Positions 1-12,217 of a stretch of DNA of 64,000 nt are shown piece by piece. Origin of the DNA: Promethearchaeia archaeon (GTDB taxonomy: Archaea; Asgardarchaeota; Lokiarchaeia; Sigyniarchaeales; SOKP01); the NCBI GenBank assembly GCA_029856235.1, contig JAHQWP010000221.1:3507-67506 (forward strand), given 5' to 3'. The notes below the pieces were generated by a model. That model searched no databases. It was not told where the DNA came from and saw only the letters and a program-made list of their open reading frames with translations. How positions within the stretch are numbered: position 1 is the first letter of the stretch; each line of letters begins with the position of its first letter. A program made the position numbers and the translations under genes.

Positions 1-830
1 CACTTGCTCACCCCTTAAATGATATGTTAAATTTAAATCGATTCATTTTTTGTCCGGGTTGTTTAATTGGAACGGTAATTACATCAATTGCAAGTTGTTT
101 AAAAGAAAGAGGTCTTACATCTAAAGATTACGCCATAGTATCTGGTATAGGATGTACTGGTCGATCAAGTGGATGCTTTAAAGCACCAGCCTTCCATACT
201 ACACATGGGAGAGCTATACCTTTTGCTACGGGTATAAAATTAGCAAATCCTAAATTAAAGGTTATAGTTCTATCGGGAGATGGAGATCTTTTTGCTATAG
301 GTGGGAATCATTTTATCCATGCTGCTAGAAGAAATATAGAGATAACAGTTCTCTGTATAAATAACAATATATATGGAATGACTGGAGGACAAGTAGCCCC
401 AACAACTCAAATTGGAGACATCACCCAAACAACACCTTATGGAAATGTGGAATCTCCTTTCAATTTAGTAAATCTAGCGGCGGCGTCAGGAGCGACATAT
501 GTTGCTAGATGGCCTGGATATGACACAATTCGATTACAAAAAAGTATTTTTAAATCTATAGACAATCAAGGATTTAGCTTTATAGAAGTGCTTGCTCCTT
601 GTTTTGTTCAATACGGTTCTAAAAATAAATTAGGCGATGCTGTAGAGATACTAGAATGGTTAAAAAAACAAATTAAAATTAAAGTTGATTGGGCCCCTAG
701 TGAAGCAACTTTTGATTTCAAGAGAGGGATTATAATATGCGGGGAATTTGTTGAGGAGACTCGGGAAGGATTTAGCGAAAAAATAGAACAAGTACGAATT
801 AAAGCACAAGATAAGAAAATTAATAATTGA
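1..830 (+). CDS. korB: 2-oxoacid:ferredoxin oxidoreductase beta subunit (5'-truncated by window edge)
   Basis: FCPGC, SGIGCTGR, HTTHGRA, SGDGD...NNNIYGMTGGQ TPP motif; frame is open upstream of ATG 24 (LAHPLND). Confidence 0.88.
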   Translation, partial: LAHPLNDMLNLNRFIFCPGCLIGTVITSIASCLKERGLTSKDYAIVSGIGCTGRSSGCFKAPAFHTTHGRAIPFATGIKLANPKLKVIVLSGDGDLFAIGGNHFIHAARRNIEITVLCINNNIYGMTGGQVAPTTQIGDITQTTPYGNVESPFNLVNLAAASGATYVARWPGYDTIRLQKSIFKSIDNQGFSFIEVLAPCFVQYGSKNKLGDAVEILEWLKKQIKIKVDWAPSEATFDFKRGIIICGEFVEETREGFSEKIEQVRIKAQDKKINN

Positions 831-851: not shown

Positions 852-3203
852 ATGACTGAAAGTGCTGATAAACCTAGACTCGAACCAAAAATTGGGGTTT
901 TTCTATGTAAATGTGGAAAAAATATTGGCGGAACTGTTGATATTGATCAATTAGCAAAAGAAATTGAAGGAGATCCAAGGGTCAAACTAGTTCAAGTTAA
1001 TACATATACGTGTTCTGATCCGGGGCAAGTAGAAATAGTAAACGCAATTAACGAGCAAGGTATAGAGAAGATAGTTATAGCAGCATGCTCACCAAGATTA
1101 CATGGTCCAACATGGAAAAAACTTTTAAGAGGAACTGGAATAAATCCTTCCTTGGTAGAAGTAGCTAATATCCGAGAACAATGTAGTTGGGTACATCTTT
1201 CAGAGAAAGAAGAAGCGACTAAAAAGGCAAAAGAAATCCTTGAAATGGCAATCGCTAAAGCTGAATTATTAGAAGCAATTGATGATATCGTTGTTCCTAT
1301 TACACAAAGAGTCTTAATCATTGGAGGAGGCGTAGCAGGAATTCAAGCTGCGTTAGATTTAGCTGATGATTACGAAGTTATCCTTGTTGAAAAAGCACCT
1401 ACTATTGGAGGAAAGATGGCTCTCATCGATAAAACTTTTCCAACAATGGATTGTTCAATCTGTATATTAGGACCTAAAATGGCTGATGTAGGTAATCATG
1501 AAAATATTAATTTAATTTCTTGTGCTGAAGTTACAGCTATATCTGGATATGTCGGTAATTTTGAAGTCACAATTAAAAAATATCCACGCTATATAGATGA
1601 AAACCTCTGTACTGCGTGCGGAGATTGTGTTGCAATCTGCCCTGAAAACGTTGTTGATGAGTATTCTGGCAACTTGGGTTGGAGAAAAGCAATATATATT
1701 CCATATCCACAAGCAGTCCCAGCAATTTATATAATTGATGAAAAGAACTGTTTAGGCCTCACGCCTCTGACCTGTGGAAAATGCGTTTCTGAATGCGAAA
1801 AAGAAGCCATAAATTACGAGGATTCCGAAAAGATTTTTAATTATAAAGTAGGTAGTATTATTATCGCAACAGGTTTCGAGCTTTTTGATGCCTCTAAACT
1901 CCCAGAATATGGATGGGGTAATTATTCTAACGTTATAACAACCTTTGAATTCGAAAGGTTAATTAATGCTGCGGGACCAACGAATGGAGAACTTGTACGT
2001 CCTAGCGATCTTAAAAAGCCAAAAAGAGTTGCTTTTATTAATTGTGTAGGATCGCGTGACAAGAGATTTAATCCATACTGTTCCAACTTCTGTTGTATGG
2101 AAAGTATAAAAGATAGCCTTTTAATTAAAGAACACTGGCCTGATGTTGAGGTTGCAATATTCTTTATTGACATTAGGGCTTTTGGTAAAGGATTTGAAGA
2201 ATTATATTCACGATCAAGAGAAGAGGGTGTTCTATATATACGTGGACGTCCTGGTCAAATTAAAGAAGACCCCCTTACTAATAATCTTAATGTTTATGTT
2301 GAAAATATAAACAATGGTACAATTCTCTCTGAAAACTTTGATTTAGTAGTCCTTTCTATAGGAGTCGAAGGTTCTTCAGAATCTATTCCCTTTCCTATTG
2401 CTAAGGATTCAAAAGGGTTTTACATTGAAGCACATCCTAAACTTCGACCTGTAGATACTCCAAATGATGGTATTTTCATTGCTGGAGGCGCAGAATCACC
2501 AAAGGATATTAGAGATACTGTTACCCAGGCAAGTGCTGCAGCTGGTCGCTGTGGAAATCTGCTTTCAAGAGAAGAGTTCCATGTAGAACCTTTATATGCA
2601 TTTGTGGATATAGATAAGTGTACTAGTTGTGGGATTTGTGTATCTCGTTGTCCTTACGGTGCTATTAGTGTTGATCCAGATAAAAAAACACCTGCCCGCA
2701 TTATTCCAGTGTTGTGTAAAGGTTGTGGGACCTGTGCTGCAGATTGCCCCTCAAATGCTATTACCATGACAAATTTTACAGATATCATGATTCTCAGACA
2801 AATTGATATAGCTCTTCGTGAGGATGCCTCAAAAAAAGTGTTAATTTTTGCTTGTAATTGGTGTTCGTATGCTGGAGCGGATTTAGCAGGAACAAGTCGA
2901 ATCCAGTACCCGACTAATACAAGAATTGTTAGAATGATGTGTTCCGGACGAGTGAATCCTTCTTTTATTAAACACTGTTTTAACCGCGGAGCTGGAGCTG
3001 TTATGTTGACTGGATGTCATCCACAAGATTGCCATTATATCTCTGGAAATGACTTTGCCATAAAACGAGAAAAAAAAATTAGAAGTTGGATGAAGAAAAA
3101 TAAAATTTCTGATGAGAGATTTGTCATTGAATATATCTCTGCAGCAGAAGGAAAAAAATTTGCCGATGTAGTCTCGCAAGTAAGTAAAATAGCTTCAAAA
3201 TAG
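852..3203 (+). CDS. hdrA: Heterodisulfide reductase subunit A fused to a C-terminal MvhD (hydrogenase delta) domain
   Basis: FLCKCG, ACSPRLH, NIREQCSWVH, GGGVAG FAD motif, FPTMDCSICI, CVGSRD..YCSNFCC, ferredoxin motifs; C-terminal FACNWCSYAGAD, MCSGRV, GCHPQDCHY (MvhD). Confidence 0.93.
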   Translation: MTESADKPRLEPKIGVFLCKCGKNIGGTVDIDQLAKEIEGDPRVKLVQVNTYTCSDPGQVEIVNAINEQGIEKIVIAACSPRLHGPTWKKLLRGTGINPSLVEVANIREQCSWVHLSEKEEATKKAKEILEMAIAKAELLEAIDDIVVPITQRVLIIGGGVAGIQAALDLADDYEVILVEKAPTIGGKMALIDKTFPTMDCSICILGPKMADVGNHENINLISCAEVTAISGYVGNFEVTIKKYPRYIDENLCTACGDCVAICPENVVDEYSGNLGWRKAIYIPYPQAVPAIYIIDEKNCLGLTPLTCGKCVSECEKEAINYEDSEKIFNYKVGSIIIATGFELFDASKLPEYGWGNYSNVITTFEFERLINAAGPTNGELVRPSDLKKPKRVAFINCVGSRDKRFNPYCSNFCCMESIKDSLLIKEHWPDVEVAIFFIDIRAFGKGFEELYSRSREEGVLYIRGRPGQIKEDPLTNNLNVYVENINNGTILSENFDLVVLSIGVEGSSESIPFPIAKDSKGFYIEAHPKLRPVDTPNDGIFIAGGAESPKDIRDTVTQASAAAGRCGNLLSREEFHVEPLYAFVDIDKCTSCGICVSRCPYGAISVDPDKKTPARIIPVLCKGCGTCAADCPSNAITMTNFTDIMILRQIDIALREDASKKVLIFACNWCSYAGADLAGTSRIQYPTNTRIVRMMCSGRVNPSFIKHCFNRGAGAVMLTGCHPQDCHYISGNDFAIKREKKIRSWMKKNKISDERFVIEYISAAEGKKFADVVSQVSKIASK

Positions 3204-3703: not shown

Positions 3704-5143
3704 TTATACTTTTTTATTTGATTTTTTTTTGAAGAATTCAGATATTTTTGGTAATAATGGTAGAAATTCTTGTGGATCTCCGAAAATGGTTATTTTATTT
3801 TCTTTAATTTTAGTCAGCAAGTTACTAATTGTTTTCGGACGAGTAAGATGATGTGTAATTAAAATTAACGGTTTATTATGTTTGTGTCCTAAGGATAGGC
3901 TCTCAAAAACAACATTGAAAAAAGCCTGAGTATCTTTTATCCTAGGTGGCAATGTAAGGTAAAAACCAGGTAAATCCATAACTAAACCATCAATATTTTT
4001 ATCTGATAATACAATACCAATAACTTCCTTAACGGTATCTATAGCAAAAAATTGGGCTGCGAAATCAAGTGGGTTATTAGGGCTTGTTCCAACCATAAAA
4101 AACTTTTTTGAAATCTCACTTTGTATATTAGGGGAAAATGGGGGAACTTCTAAACCTGACTTCTCAATTAAATCGGCTAAAACTACTCCATAACCTCCAG
4201 ATATACTTATTACTGCTAAATTTTGTAGTTTAAAACTTCCGTAACAATCAATTAAACGAGCTGTATGAAGTAACTGTTCTAAAGAATCAACTTCGATGAT
4301 GTTATATTGACGAAAGAAATTTTTCCAGATTTTATTATTCCCCGATATTGAAGCTGTGTGAGTTTTGGCTGCAATAGCTCCTATTTCGCTTTGTCCCCCT
4401 TTGAGAACTATTATAGGCTTGGTATTATTCTTAAGAATTCCTTTAAGCGTATCTATCCGACCTTCTTTAATTCCTTCGAGATAACATAATATAATTTCTG
4501 TTTCTGGGTCGTTTATTAAAAAAGAGAGAAGGTCAACAAAATCTAAATTAGCACCATTTCCATACGAAAAGACTTTAGAGAAATTAATACCCAATTCAAT
4601 AGAGGAATAAATAGCAATATTGCATATTCCTCCAGATTGAGCAATAAATCCAATGTTTCCAGTAACTGATGGGAATCCTGTACGCCAAGCAATTCCTAGT
4701 TTAGGATAGAATAACCCTAATCCATTCGGTCCTAAAATTTTTACTTTATTTTTAGCTCTTCTTAATAATTCTTTTTCCAACTCAAAACCTTCCTCTGTTC
4801 CAGCATCTGAAAACTCTGATGTAAAAACCGTAACCAATTTTACTCCTTTTTCTACACATTCATCCATTACTTCCAAGACTTTTTTTGCTGGAATTGCGAT
4901 AAAAGCGAAGTCTATCGCTTCTGGAATCTCTAGGATTGAAGAATAAATTTTATCTTTAGGGAAATTAGGTATCTCCTCTGCGCTAGTATGTACAGCGTAT
5001 AGGTTGCCTTTAAAAGCATATTGATGGTTCCTTAAAAAGAAATAATCCCTCTTTTTTGATGCTCCAATAATAGCAATTGATCTTATATCATTAATAAAGG
5101 AGATATCTTTTACAACGATGTCTTTTTTCTTTATGATGTCCAT
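3704..5143 (-). CDS. ADP-forming acyl-CoA synthetase, alpha subunit
   Basis: SIAIIGAS, ILGPNGLG, IAQSGG, CYLEG, VLKGG, KTHTASISG phospho-His, NNPLD; ATG 5143 preferred as start. Confidence 0.85.
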   Translation of the reverse strand: MDIIKKKDIVVKDISFINDIRSIAIIGASKKRDYFFLRNHQYAFKGNLYAVHTSAEEIPNFPKDKIYSSILEIPEAIDFAFIAIPAKKVLEVMDECVEKGVKLVTVFTSEFSDAGTEEGFELEKELLRRAKNKVKILGPNGLGLFYPKLGIAWRTGFPSVTGNIGFIAQSGGICNIAIYSSIELGINFSKVFSYGNGANLDFVDLLSFLINDPETEIILCYLEGIKEGRIDTLKGILKNNTKPIIVLKGGQSEIGAIAAKTHTASISGNNKIWKNFFRQYNIIEVDSLEQLLHTARLIDCYGSFKLQNLAVISISGGYGVVLADLIEKSGLEVPPFSPNIQSEISKKFFMVGTSPNNPLDFAAQFFAIDTVKEVIGIVLSDKNIDGLVMDLPGFYLTLPPRIKDTQAFFNVVFESLSLGHKHNKPLILITHHLTRPKTISNLLTKIKENKITIFGDPQEFLPLLPKISEFFKKKSNKKV

Positions 5144-5341
5144 TGATATTTTAAAATTAAAGATTAGATTAATAGTTTCTAGAAAAATAGGACAATTATT
5201 ATAGAAGGAAGTCAATTCTAGCTACTGAATAAACGCTCGTATTAAAAAAAAAATGATTTATATAGAAAATATATAATAACTGTAGATGATAAAAATAACA
5301 TAAAATGTTAAAAAACCTCTAATTTTCAAGGTGAAGATCAA

Positions 5342-9828: not shown

Positions 9829-11058
9829 ATGTCAATAGAACCAATGAAATTATTCTTTAAAGAGATAAAAGAACCAATTGAAACTACTATGATAGGGAAT
9901 TATGCCGTCGCTGGAGCAGTTACTCAAACTGATCCCGATGTTATTTGTGCCTTTCCAATTACGCCACAAACTCAATCTGTCGAAGGTCTATCTGATGTAG
10001 TTCATCAAGGAAGGTTAAAAGCAGCTTTTGTAAATGTAGAATCAGAATTAGCAGCTATATCCTATTCAACTGCAGCAAGTGCAGTAGGAGCTAGAACATT
10101 CACGGCAACGGCATCTCAAGGGTATTTACTCATGACAGAGGCTTTACCTATGGCCGTTGGTTGGAGAGTTCCATTAACAATGATGATTTCAGCAAGAGCA
10201 TTTAATTCACCTAATTTATCAATATGGAACTCTTGGGAATTCACTCAAACAAATTCTGAATTAGGTTGGAATACTATCGTTTCTGAAAATGTTCAAGAGA
10301 CATATGATGCTGCTATCCTAGCAGTTATGATCTCGGATAATTCTTTATTCCCTACTATGTTTGTACATGATGGATTTATTATTTCGCATTCAGTTCAGAA
10401 ATTAACTTTAATACCTGATGAAATCGTTCGAAAATTAACTCCCAAGAAACCTAGGCATACAATTAATACAAAGAGACCTGGAACGTGGGGAGGTATAGTT
10501 ACCCCAAGCTTTTTTATGGAAGGGAGAAAAGGTTTGGATGAAGCGAAAGAACCTGTTTTAGGAATTATGGAAAAAGCGTTTGAAGAGTTTGGGAATGCAA
10601 CTGGAAGAAAATATAACTTGATTGAGACCTATAATTTAGACAATCCTTCAAAAACAGCTTTTCTCACAATGGGTTCCATGTGTGGAAATATAATTAGTTG
10701 GATGACCAAGAATAAGGATGTTGGATTAATCAAGATTAGAGCTTTTAGACCATTCCCTCACGAAAAACTGCAAAAAATTGTAGAGGAACACAATATTGAG
10801 AAATTGATTATTTTTGAAAAGTCTGATTCTTTGAATGGTATGCTTCCACCATTTTCGATGTCGATTGCTTCAGCTCTATATCCATTAGGCACCACATTCA
10901 GAAGTTTTATTGTTGGATTAGGCGGAAGAGATGTAACACGAGATGAATTTGATGTAGCAAAGAAGAAAATGGAATCTATCAATGACATGAAAGGTAAATT
11001 GTATATGTATCTCGGTGTAAGGGAATCAAAAGAAAAAATAATGGGGGTTGATATCTAA
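9829..11058 (+). CDS. porA: Pyruvate/2-oxoacid:ferredoxin oxidoreductase alpha subunit
   Basis: AFPITPQT, VESE, ARTFTATASQG, DGFIISH, RPFP, GLGGRD; GGAGG RBS before ATG 9829. Confidence 0.9.
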   Translation: MSIEPMKLFFKEIKEPIETTMIGNYAVAGAVTQTDPDVICAFPITPQTQSVEGLSDVVHQGRLKAAFVNVESELAAISYSTAASAVGARTFTATASQGYLLMTEALPMAVGWRVPLTMMISARAFNSPNLSIWNSWEFTQTNSELGWNTIVSENVQETYDAAILAVMISDNSLFPTMFVHDGFIISHSVQKLTLIPDEIVRKLTPKKPRHTINTKRPGTWGGIVTPSFFMEGRKGLDEAKEPVLGIMEKAFEEFGNATGRKYNLIETYNLDNPSKTAFLTMGSMCGNIISWMTKNKDVGLIKIRAFRPFPHEKLQKIVEEHNIEKLIIFEKSDSLNGMLPPFSMSIASALYPLGTTFRSFIVGLGGRDVTRDEFDVAKKKMESINDMKGKLYMYLGVRESKEKIMGVDI

Positions 11059-11059
11059 A

Positions 11060-12148
11060 ATGTCGCAACCAGAACGAAACACTATTAAGTTTGAAGATAT
11101 CCTTGCTCGAGATGAAAAATGCAATGTATTATTCTTTAATTATGACAACGAAGCTTTCATGAATACAGGTATTCAAGAGTCAGGTGGAACACCCCCATAT
11201 GCCTCAACGACTACTGGTCCTGGTGGAGAAAAGATACCTGGAAAGATTGGAGTAAAGCAGGATTTAGTTACTCCATTTGCGTTCTATGGTACAAAATCAC
11301 TTTTCTTAGCAACGGCTAATCCTGCATTTCCTAATGATTTTATGGGTAAAGTAGCTGATGCATTAAAAACTAATGGCTCAGCGTTCATTCAATCTTATTC
11401 CGATTGTATGAGAGGATGGCGTCATGGAGCAAGTGATGCTTTGAAAATCTCAAAATTAGCTACTGAATGCGGCTACTGGCCACTATACACTATAAGAGTA
11501 AAAGACGGAGTGCCAACTTTCTCATATTATCGAGGATTAGATATCGATAAAGAGAAATTTGTTGAATATCTTAAATCTATGGGTCGGTTTAGACATTTAT
11601 TTAAACCACAATTCCTAGAAAAAGAAATCGATGAGCTTATTTATTTTACTGAACAAAGAAATTTGAGATTAAAAGGTCTAATTGAGCAATTTGGAGCAGA
11701 AAAACCTGTCGATGTATATCGCGTTAACCGAAAAACTTTAGAACCTCAACAACACTTACATCCTGGTCATGGGTTATGTCCTGGTTGTGGAGCTGGGATG
11801 GTTTTAAACCAATTAGCAAGTGCTGCCACAGCTGTGACCGGAAATAATATCATTTATGTAAACAATACAAGCTGCTCTGAAGTTTCAACATCAAAAGATT
11901 TCGTGACTTCATGGAAAGTACCCTGGGTACATCATCTTTTCGAATCAGGAGCTACTATCGCAGATGCTATAAGTACTACCTATAAAATCCTCAAATCAAA
12001 GGATCAATTTAGCGGTGAAATCCCTTATGTAATCCACATCGGTGGAGATGGTTCTACCTACGATATCGGGTTTCAATTCCTTAAAGCAGCTCTCATAAGA
12101 ACAAGTTCGTTCGTTGAAATGAATGAATATTTAACTAATCAGAAATAA
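11060..12148 (+). CDS. porB: Pyruvate/2-oxoacid:ferredoxin oxidoreductase beta subunit, circularly permuted
   Basis: YDNEAFMNTGIQ...TP...TTT and GYWPLY come before PGHGLCPGCG...CSEV...VPWVH...GGDGSTYDIG, the reverse of the canonical order. Confidence 0.9.
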   Translation: MSQPERNTIKFEDILARDEKCNVLFFNYDNEAFMNTGIQESGGTPPYASTTTGPGGEKIPGKIGVKQDLVTPFAFYGTKSLFLATANPAFPNDFMGKVADALKTNGSAFIQSYSDCMRGWRHGASDALKISKLATECGYWPLYTIRVKDGVPTFSYYRGLDIDKEKFVEYLKSMGRFRHLFKPQFLEKEIDELIYFTEQRNLRLKGLIEQFGAEKPVDVYRVNRKTLEPQQHLHPGHGLCPGCGAGMVLNQLASAATAVTGNNIIYVNNTSCSEVSTSKDFVTSWKVPWVHHLFESGATIADAISTTYKILKSKDQFSGEIPYVIHIGGDGSTYDIGFQFLKAALIRTSSFVEMNEYLTNQK

Positions 12149-12180
12149 TTTAATATTTATTTTTCTTATTTTTTTCATTT
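12149..12180 (+). terminator. Oligo-T tract after the por operon
   Basis: Multiple T-runs immediately after the stop codon. Confidence 0.5.
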
Positions 12181-12217
12181 CTTTAAAATTTAAAGAATTT
12201 TTTAATTCATATTTGAG

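Follow-up and report, generated by a model that had tools for sequence, protein, structure and literature searches.

A PorB-type beta subunit of Lokiarchaeia is circularly permuted, with its GDG...N cofactor motif divided between the chain ends

We analyzed a 64,000-nt stretch of contig JAHQWP010000221.1 from a Promethearchaeia archaeon (assembly GCA_029856235.1, positions 3,507 to 67,506; hereafter the window), which contains a gene for a PorB-type beta subunit of 2-oxoacid:ferredoxin oxidoreductases (OFORs). The protein is a genuine, intact circular permutant, in which the two halves of the chain are exchanged and the GDG...N motif is divided between the chain ends. GDG-X(~26)-N is the textbook signature for recognizing thiamine-diphosphate (ThDP or TPP) enzymes, and to our knowledge this cofactor motif is universally contiguous among them. 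Here the signature is cut in two at opposite ends of the chain, yet the protein belongs to an apparently working enzyme that is kept across a whole class. Judging from the sequences, the cofactor site evidently tolerates a break in the turn between helix and strand.

Because the permuted form is conserved class-wide, with invariant functional residues, purifying selection, a conserved gene cassette, a predicted fold and a modelled docking on the alpha subunit, it is probably functional. We consider it likely that this is the beta subunit, binding TPP and [4Fe-4S], of a three-subunit Por/Vor-type OFOR, and that the permutation arose once near the base of the class, most likely by duplication and loss. 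A bolder claim, toward which we lean slightly negative, is that this is the first natural permutation inside the PP domain of a ThDP enzyme, fixed once in the lokiarchaeial ancestor, catalytically active, and equipped with a new head, linker and tail that give it a new property. Were this so, the property could be cofactor loading, stability or substrate range in these amino-acid-fermenting Asgard archaea.

The gene is of interest for protein evolution and for the reading of Asgard metabolism, and it is a deeply conserved test case, provided by nature, for protein engineers and evolutionists. A first-pass annotation of the window, made from the sequence without database searches, had singled out the gene and knew of no earlier account of it. 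In our full-text literature search, likewise, no account of a permuted beta subunit of an OFOR came up; those matches on permutation that could be judged concerned statistical permutations or other proteins, although unindexed papers are possible.

The two halves of the beta subunit are in swapped order

Residues of the permuted beta subunit are numbered from TTG 11048, which gives the longest open reading frame (ORF; 366 aa). ATG 11060 gives 362 aa, and most homologues begin at its equivalent (MSQPERN) and are 361–362 aa long.

The first-pass annotation had proposed that the halves of a PorB are permuted within a single ORF and had predicted two swapped high-scoring segment pairs on alignment. 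Both proposals were borne out. With BLASTP against the canonical PorB encoded on contig C5 of the same genome, residues 20–184 matched subject positions 115–273 (E 2e-28) and residues 234–356 matched subject positions 10–123 (E 4e-9). The same exchange was seen with phmmer against the beta chain of Methanosarcina acetivorans pyruvate:ferredoxin oxidoreductase (PFOR; PDB 9bt4_C), where residues 27–197 aligned to chain positions 119–282 (independent E-value, i-E, 4.6e-27) and residues 233–351 to positions 6–115 (i-E 3e-16). In the NCBIfam PorB model NF008819 (300 positions), residues 24–196 fall on model positions 118–291, and the next match along the gene is to positions 4–122. We also built a profile from 53 canonical sequences (309 positions) and compared it with the permuted family. 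Two domains in swapped order were found in 40 of 40 sequences, the N-terminal part covering profile positions ~124–302 and the C-terminal part 4–128. At the junction, the profile ends at 292–303 of 309 and restarts at 4–10, with ~25 unaligned residues between. The halves of this PorB-type subunit are swapped, far beyond chance. Profile matches confirm that the korB gene at the start of the window (24–830) has the normal order, as had been reported in the first reading.

The Mg/TPP motif is accordingly not contiguous: GDG lies 31 residues from the C-terminal end and Asn34 lies ~30 residues from the N-terminal end. The N-terminal strand leads into NYDNEAFMNTGIQ (residues 31–43), which includes the Mg-ligand Asn, and the stop codon is reached 31 residues past GDG. 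Along the permuted chain, the cluster cysteines, all of which align to canonical cysteine positions, come in the order C120, C244, C247, C276, the canonically last one being first. Both motif halves and all four cysteines had been read as intact in one ORF, and they are invariant in all 40 aligned sequences; the invariant positions comprise N31-A36 (NYDNEA), N39, T40, G41 and Q43 (NTG.Q), the four cysteines, G333-D334-G335, and D339-I340-G341 (DIG). Mean column identity across this alignment is 73%, with identities down to 54%. The positions first assigned to YDNE, to the cysteine of SDCMRGW, to PGHGLCPGCG and to GGDG (Table 1) are all correct. The C-terminal 'MNE' was considered as the end of a second complete Mg motif (GDG-X23-N) and rejected: Asn358 varies among N, H, Q, S and A across the 40 sequences, and the tail has no profile match.

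Profile-based annotation fails on this gene. With Pfam PF02775, residues 20–115 alone give a match, at 22.0 bits where the threshold is 21.9, so that one half is barely at threshold; the NCBIfam score is half of the cut-off. Among the homologues listed, all 27 that carry a name in NCBI are called 'hypothetical protein', and in JGI 16 are named OFOR beta subunit. Because annotation misses the permuted beta, metabolic reconstructions of Lokiarchaeia may undercount OFOR complexes.

Distribution of the permuted gene and support for its junction

A word-indexed search of NCBI, JGI, ENA and Logan assemblies returned 319 relatives, 120 of which were listed. For 105 of the listed homologue clusters, one alignment spans 94% or more of the query, with identities of 54–95%; one spans 92%, and the other 14 are fragments with 64–77% coverage. 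Canonical order in all close relatives, the outcome named at the outset as fatal to the proposal, was thus not seen.

The first-pass annotation had also suggested looking for the junction in other Asgard genomes. We searched 400 genomes of the phylum with a match cut-off of E ≤ 1e-100, counting rows by hand and taking families f1–f7 as the same class. The permuted gene is present in 128 of 160 same-class genomes; two have contig-end fragments, and 30 have no match. Single-contig genomes that carry it are G135, G138, G143, G189 and G279. For the other classes, one genome of 239 (G075) has such a match, and the rest stop at E 1e-15 to 1e-37, with half-length matches to canonical PorBs. The gene is a clean synapomorphy-like marker of the class, set against one suspect fragment elsewhere. 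That fragment (G075:C23:1999-2799) is incomplete, 86% identical and contains a stop codon. The genome that holds it is 5.9 Mb in size, with contamination estimated at 8%; the contig was probably mis-binned, and a transfer is less likely.

When 1.84 billion cluster representatives were scanned exhaustively with HMMER, 1313 matched, and the best 150 of these were considered. Among these 150, the only full-length single-stretch match is P0121 (365 aa, 55% identity; source name Helarchaeota), and there are seven shorter single-stretch pieces at 51–89% identity. The remainder are mostly two-stretch matches, with the N-terminal part of the query on the C-terminal part of the target. Eleven shorter or fused proteins (37–41% identity) also align in a single stretch; the eight that were read resemble ordinary PorB pieces.

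Support for the junction in sequencing data, which had been called for in the first reading, comes from public runs in the form of contigs, and hence speaks to presence and continuity, not to depth, transcript ends or expression level. A 1871-nt DNA contig matches 11525–12400 with 0 differences (its sample is neither of the two flagged as possible sources, but shares a study with one of them), and RNA-library contigs from one study cover 11270–11603, 11599–11850, 11548–11701 and 11675–11905. No joints or indels are listed among the contigs laid on the gene. In the X5 run there is no listed piece across 11446–11707, which proves nothing. Together with the recurrence of the permuted order in other assemblies, the bridging of the junction by DNA and RNA-library contigs refutes a misassembly.

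A short part of the gene recurs elsewhere. DNA contigs that carry other genes agree with the window at 11140–11176 over nothing but the 35 nt that encode YDNEAFMNTGIQ; beyond these they part from it in both directions, with loose ends at 11140/11144 and 11175/11176. In at least 10 relatives, the match starts no more than 4 nt from the end of a contig. Assemblies may break at this conserved stretch, and the number of genomes 'without' the gene would then be overstated. In G207, the cognate alpha lies at a contig edge; because absence in 'complete' genomes is partly an assembly effect of this sort, the figure of 30 in 160 is an upper bound. An apparent 715-aa alpha–beta fusion in G258 (L027:1115-3232, G258:C34) was rejected, as a run of N between the genes makes a false frame of 705–715 aa.

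Purifying selection, cassette conservation and phylogeny

We applied the Nei–Gojobori method to the window gene and ten same-genus orthologues, taking the ratio of nonsynonymous to synonymous substitution rates (dN/dS) as mean dN over mean dS (mean dS 1.15–1.47). The whole-gene ratio was 0.035. Among the segments, the head had 0.083, the linker 0.069, the tail 0.030 and the two blocks 0.040 and 0.028. All segments, including the head, linker and tail, are under strong purifying selection.

On the forward strand of the window, the gene is the last of a three-gene cassette with the order gamma-delta, alpha, beta. This is the operon order given in the first reading, with gamma and delta fused in one 337-aa ORF. 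The cassette is kept in five of seven distant loci and in those close loci that reach far enough; in the G129 locus, the gamma-delta gene is missing upstream. In G279:C1, the permuted beta stands alone (1502548–1503600), and the cognate alpha, 63% identical to the window alpha, lies ~540 kb off (2045958–2047169). Outside the three-gene cassette, no flanking gene is common to the window and the seven distant loci, and the neighbourhood thus offers no substrate clue.

For phylogeny, we used rotated sequences and LG+G4 in a quick search with no mixture model. The tree comprised 13 of the 40 permuted sequences (the other 27, closer duplicates, were left out), 51 of the 146 proteins P0125–P0270 (285–345 aa), and three proteins of the genome. 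All 13 permuted sequences fall in a single clade (SH-aLRT 100), which has a long stem of 0.85 and lies apart from the canonical PorBs of the genome on C5 and C19.

Predicted fold and docking on the alpha subunit

AlphaFold2, supplied with the 40-sequence alignment, modelled the permuted beta with a predicted TM score (pTM) of 0.85 and a mean predicted local distance difference test (pLDDT) of 77.9; the model of the canonical C5 paralogue has a pLDDT of 93.6. When the two models were compared, every canonical helix (H) and strand (E) of the C5 model was found to recur in the permutant in rotated order. Canonical E123–128 to H275–298 correspond to permutant E25–32 to H191–215, and canonical H24–36 to H109–117 correspond to permutant H248–264 to H340–353. 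The additional modelled elements are E10–14 and H15–19 in the head (pLDDT 96), a junction strand at 216–225 and a tail helix at 358–362. Foldseek gave PFOR beta (9bt4_C) and the beta subunit of oxalate oxidoreductase (OOR) as best matches. An ESM Atlas look-up returned no structure for the permuted beta, and the family there was again PorB / oxalate-oxidoreductase-beta.

Modelling supports docking of the permuted beta on its alpha. The predicted complex, built from 14 alpha rows and 40 beta rows, scored 0.77 versus 0.00 for the best control. Of 80 solved complexes, 58 came up to that mark, as did 2 of 110 mismatched pairs, a calibration that is only approximate since our own alignments were used. 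At least 92% of contacts are common to the runs, the partner has a pLDDT of 84 or more, and the predicted beta interface lies within residues 266–362, including parts of the tail (Table 1). OFOR alpha–beta complexes have already been solved, and because of this the pass may reflect likeness and not be independent evidence.

Proposed function of the permuted enzyme

Por models are top-scoring for all three genes of the cassette (alpha PorA_Arch 304, beta PorB 206 and gamma 166 bits), which makes a pyruvate-type substrate our best guess. In the cognate alpha, FPITPQT and an ESE stretch are invariant in 14 of 14 sequences; we take these to be the PFOR substrate and catalytic positions. The genome holds about six further OFOR-type loci. 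Two of these are canonical Por/Vor-type alpha–beta pairs, on contigs C5 and C19, so the permuted enzyme is an extra Por/Vor-type paralogue.

In the arrangement we propose, the permuted chain would serve as the TPP- and [4Fe-4S]-binding subunit of a gamma-delta fusion/alpha/beta Por/Vor-type OFOR, its PP domain being the part that is permuted. The chain runs from the NYDNE strand through the canonical C-terminal half, then through a ~35-residue junction of the old termini and the canonical N-terminal half, and closes just past GDG and its helix. The break falls within the GDG-X(~26)-N motif, at the turn from helix to strand. From the helix-turn-strand topology, this turn should sit at the sheet end far from the cofactor, and the folded domain could thus bring Asp334, near the C-terminal end, and Asn34, near the N-terminal end, to one Mg-diphosphate site. 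Cys244, Cys247, Cys276 and Cys120 would likewise be brought together on one cluster. The enzyme would still oxidize a 2-oxoacid to acyl-CoA and CO2 with reduction of ferredoxin, and we infer that it is a working 2-oxoacid:ferredoxin oxidoreductase.

Passages of a study of a cultured member of the Lokiarchaeia group describe OFORs as central to energy recovery from amino acids (Imachi et al., PMC7015854). Those passages do not mention the permuted subunit, and the supplementary gene tables of that study may list the gene.

Alternative explanations and origin of the permutation

Several observations weigh against the view that this is a functional Por/Vor-type subunit. The beta scores 206.1 bits in NF008819, for which the cut-off is 405, although the canonical paralogues of the genome also fall slightly below it (377.9 and 376.5). 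All NCBIfam scores of the cassette are under the curated cut-offs (alpha 304 versus 550), and the two further Por/Vor-type operons leave the substrate ambiguous. The gene is absent from 30 of 160 class genomes. G267, of the same genus and rated 100% complete, has neither the permuted beta nor the cognate alpha (best alpha match 34%); since the alpha is missing too, the whole cassette seems to be absent there, and the enzyme would seem to be dispensable. In G270, also of the same genus and rated 100% complete, gamma-delta and alpha are intact and beta is a 27-aa ORF (L028:2450-2533, G270:C54), of which about the first 23 residues match the permuted head and after which ~345 nt of non-coding sequence extend to the contig end. 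Here the gene has decayed, or the assembly has a false join in the motif common to paralogues. A split permuted beta is seen in P0271 and P0272 (adjacent locus tags; source name Helarchaeota), and in the P0122 cluster (257, 278, 98 and 96 aa; contigs of 9–41 kb) the ORF ends just past CxxC in some assemblies; these may represent frameshifts, sequencing errors or a real split. As for the other lines of evidence, the RNA-library support consists of contigs that may contain DNA. The dN/dS values are rough, though clear in direction, with dS near saturation and 21 of 55 pairs usable for the whole gene. Finally, confidence in the monomer model drops below pLDDT 50 in the cofactor loops 36–47 and 55–72.

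The absences, the truncation in G270, the few split assemblies and the uninformative NCBI name would suit a decaying or non-functional scrambled pseudogene with a frame open by chance. However, a dN/dS near 0.035, the high column identity with invariant functional residues over 40 sequences, a frame intact in ~100 independent clusters, the conserved operon and a fold predicted with confidence bring this explanation close to refutation, and we give it very little credence. A chimeric join of two PorB fragments during assembly of this metagenome-derived genome has even less to recommend it. The 35-nt stretch at which contigs of other genes branch, and the matches that begin beside contig ends, are what speak for such an artefact, but it is refuted by the recurrence of the same order in 105 of the 120 listed clusters, from four data sources, and in single-contig genomes, as well as by the difference-free DNA contig and the RNA-library contigs that bridge the junction with no joints listed. 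An unlikely explanation, yet one with a better claim than these, is that the permuted subunit is conserved and its job has changed, to a new substrate or partner or to a mainly electron-transfer or structural role. The long stem branch agrees with this, as do the purifying selection on the new head, linker strand and tail, the place of the tail in the predicted alpha interface, the presence of two canonical Por/Vor-type operons and other OFORs in the genome, and scores under every equivalog cut-off. On the other hand, all residue classes for TPP/Mg and the cluster are invariant, the cognate alpha keeps FPITPQT and ESE (presumably PFOR catalytic positions), the gamma and delta domains are complete, and Por models score best for all three genes.

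We place a single origin of the permutation at the base of the class or close to it (source names: Lokiarchaeia), most likely by an in-frame duplication, head to tail, after which the outer halves were lost. Tandem duplication and trimming had been the origin suggested in the first-pass annotation, and it is plausible: a single such event would explain why both natural termini are kept. The remnants that it might have left are thin. In the canonical profile, the median overlap between the two termini is 4 positions over the 40 sequences (range -2 to 11); BLAST and hhalign cover canonical 115–123 twice (6–9 residues), and 2 of 40 sequences have a tail whose alignment continues to profile position 134. 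By profile-profile comparison (hhalign), head 1–24 and tail 350–366 have no significant canonical match. The first reading had likened FEDILARD, at the N-terminal end, and LKAALIR, at the C-terminal end, to one canonical helix, as if duplicated. The latter does belong to a true canonical helix (residues 336–355 correspond to 103–122, probability 93.6), but the former fails, since residues 1–24 align with E 0.1 at an unrelated place. No beta–beta tandem occurs among the best 150 of 1313 matches, and a search for longer proteins gave one intein-bearing canonical PorB, which is weak evidence. The same functional permutant could have been reached by fission at the helix-strand turn into two ORFs and re-fusion in the opposite order. 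This route would account for the lack of clear duplicated remnants, for a head and tail that resemble nothing canonical and for the missing tandem form, and it draws further support from the split ORFs of the permuted gene and from canonical matches whose ORFs start near the same point (P0193, P0268 and P0270), which may be fragments. Against it, the near-whole termini at the junction are what one-step duplication gives, the double cover and the tails reaching position 134 also tell in favor of duplication, and the split ORFs observed divide a gene that is already in permuted rather than canonical order. We regard fission and re-fusion as a less likely but serious contender, and in-frame duplication with loss of the outer halves as the preferred origin.

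Comparison with known systems

Canonical archaeal PorB (NF008819; PDB 9bt4 chain C, from M. acetivorans PFOR) is the best sequence and fold match of the permutant. The two share the elements of the PP fold, GDG/DNE/NTG.Q, the four cysteines and the same partners (alpha, gamma and delta). They differ in that the permuted chain begins at canonical ~119 and ends at ~118, which splits GDG-X-N, and in that it carries an extra N-terminal head, linker strand and C-terminal tail and scores 206 bits against the 405-bit cut-off. OOR of Moorella thermoacetica (PDB 5c4i, 5exd and 5exe) resembles the cassette in having three polypeptides, with gamma and delta fused, and its beta is the second-best sequence and fold match; OOR beta is itself in canonical order. 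Equivalog scores do not identify the cassette as OOR (143.1 versus 500 for alpha, 181.7 versus 590 for beta and 71.4 versus 230 for delta), and the alpha of the permuted enzyme keeps FPITP, where OOR presumably has Arg.

Inteins, which are normally spliced out, occur within GDG...DNE of canonical PorBs from other archaea. We observed Intein_splicing and/or LAGLIDADG_3 domains in P0125 (852 aa), P0153 (640 aa), P0236 (413 aa) and P0317 (679 aa). The intein of P0125 (source name Altiarchaeales) immediately precedes CYDNE, with only a few residues between it and the break point of the permutant, and that of P0153 immediately follows GDG. The same motif region is thus interrupted at the gene level, but splicing would restore a contiguous canonical chain, whereas in the permutant, which lacks intein domains, the break is permanent. 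Another kind of rearrangement among ThDP enzymes, PP-PYR-x versus PYR-x-PP domain order, is called circular permutation in passages of a preprint (bioRxiv 10.1101/2021.03.21.436335). There, whole domains are moved and GDG...N stays contiguous; in the permutant, by contrast, the cut is inside the PP domain and the motif.

Gene layout of the cassette and neighboring genes

The features of the cassette are collected in Table 1. The gamma-delta ORF matches Pfam POR (1.3e-28) and Fer4 families, as well as the NCBIfam PorC-type (6.3e-49) and PorD (4.8e-15) models. The alpha matches Pfam POR_N (3e-53) and PFOR_II (6.7e-13), along with PorA_Arch; its start at ATG 9829 is backed by homologues beginning MS[IV]EPM. 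ATG 11060 of the beta sits 2 nt past the alpha stop, downstream of a G-rich stretch. At the other end of the gene, RNA-library contigs end at 12143 and DNA contigs continue beyond, which in two runs of one study is a weak hint of a terminator.

Table 1. Coordinates of the three-gene cassette and of the parts of the permuted beta subunit within the window
Feature	Position	Strand	Details
Gamma-delta fusion subunit, 337 aa	8814–9827	+	POR gamma domain 28–195; two-[4Fe-4S] ferredoxin (delta) domain ~246–320
Alpha subunit, 409 aa from ATG 9829 (ORF open from GTG 9793)	9829–11058	+	Pyr domain (POR_N); PFOR_II domain
Circularly permuted PorB-type beta subunit	11060–12148	+	362 aa from ATG 11060; 366 aa from TTG 11048
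N-terminal head, residues 5–24	11060–11119	+	No canonical counterpart; conserved NIIKxEDLLxR; modelled as short strand and helix, pLDDT 96
Block equal to canonical C-terminal half, residues 25–197 (canonical ~119–291)	11120–11638	+	Opens with strand ending in the Mg-ligand Asn
YDNEAFMNTGIQ, second half of Mg/TPP motif	11141–11176	+	YDNE is residues 32–35, from nt 11141; Asn34 at 11147–11149
Cys120 (SDCMRGW), fourth ligand of proximal [4Fe-4S] cluster	11405–11407	+	Canonical PCPxGW position
Junction/linker, residues 198–232	11639–11743	+	Joins near-complete canonical C-terminus to near-complete canonical N-terminus; modelled as extended C-terminal helix and extra strand
Block equal to canonical N-terminal half, residues 233–351 (canonical ~6–115)	11744–12100	+	Closes with GDG and the helix after GDG
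CPGC, Cys244 and Cys247 of the cluster motif	11777–11788	+	Within PGHGLCPGCG, residues 239–248, nt 11762
Cys276, third cluster ligand (NTSCSEV)	11873–11875	+	Alignment to canonical Cys
GDG, residues 333–335, first half of Mg/TPP motif	12044–12052	+	Asp334 at 12047–12049; GGDG is residues 332–335, nt 12041
C-terminal tail, residues 352–366, and stop codon	12101–12148	+	No significant canonical match; 355, 359 and 361–362 in predicted alpha interface
T-rich stretch, likely archaeal terminator	12149–12185	+	Directly 3' of the stop codon

Two further ORFs were noted elsewhere in the window. Directly after korB, a cysteine-rich ORF of 783 aa (852–3203, forward strand) resembles, by eye, a heterodisulfide-reductase-A-like flavoprotein, and a 503-aa ORF on the reverse strand (3704–5215) resembles, again by eye, an ADP-forming acyl-CoA synthetase-like protein.

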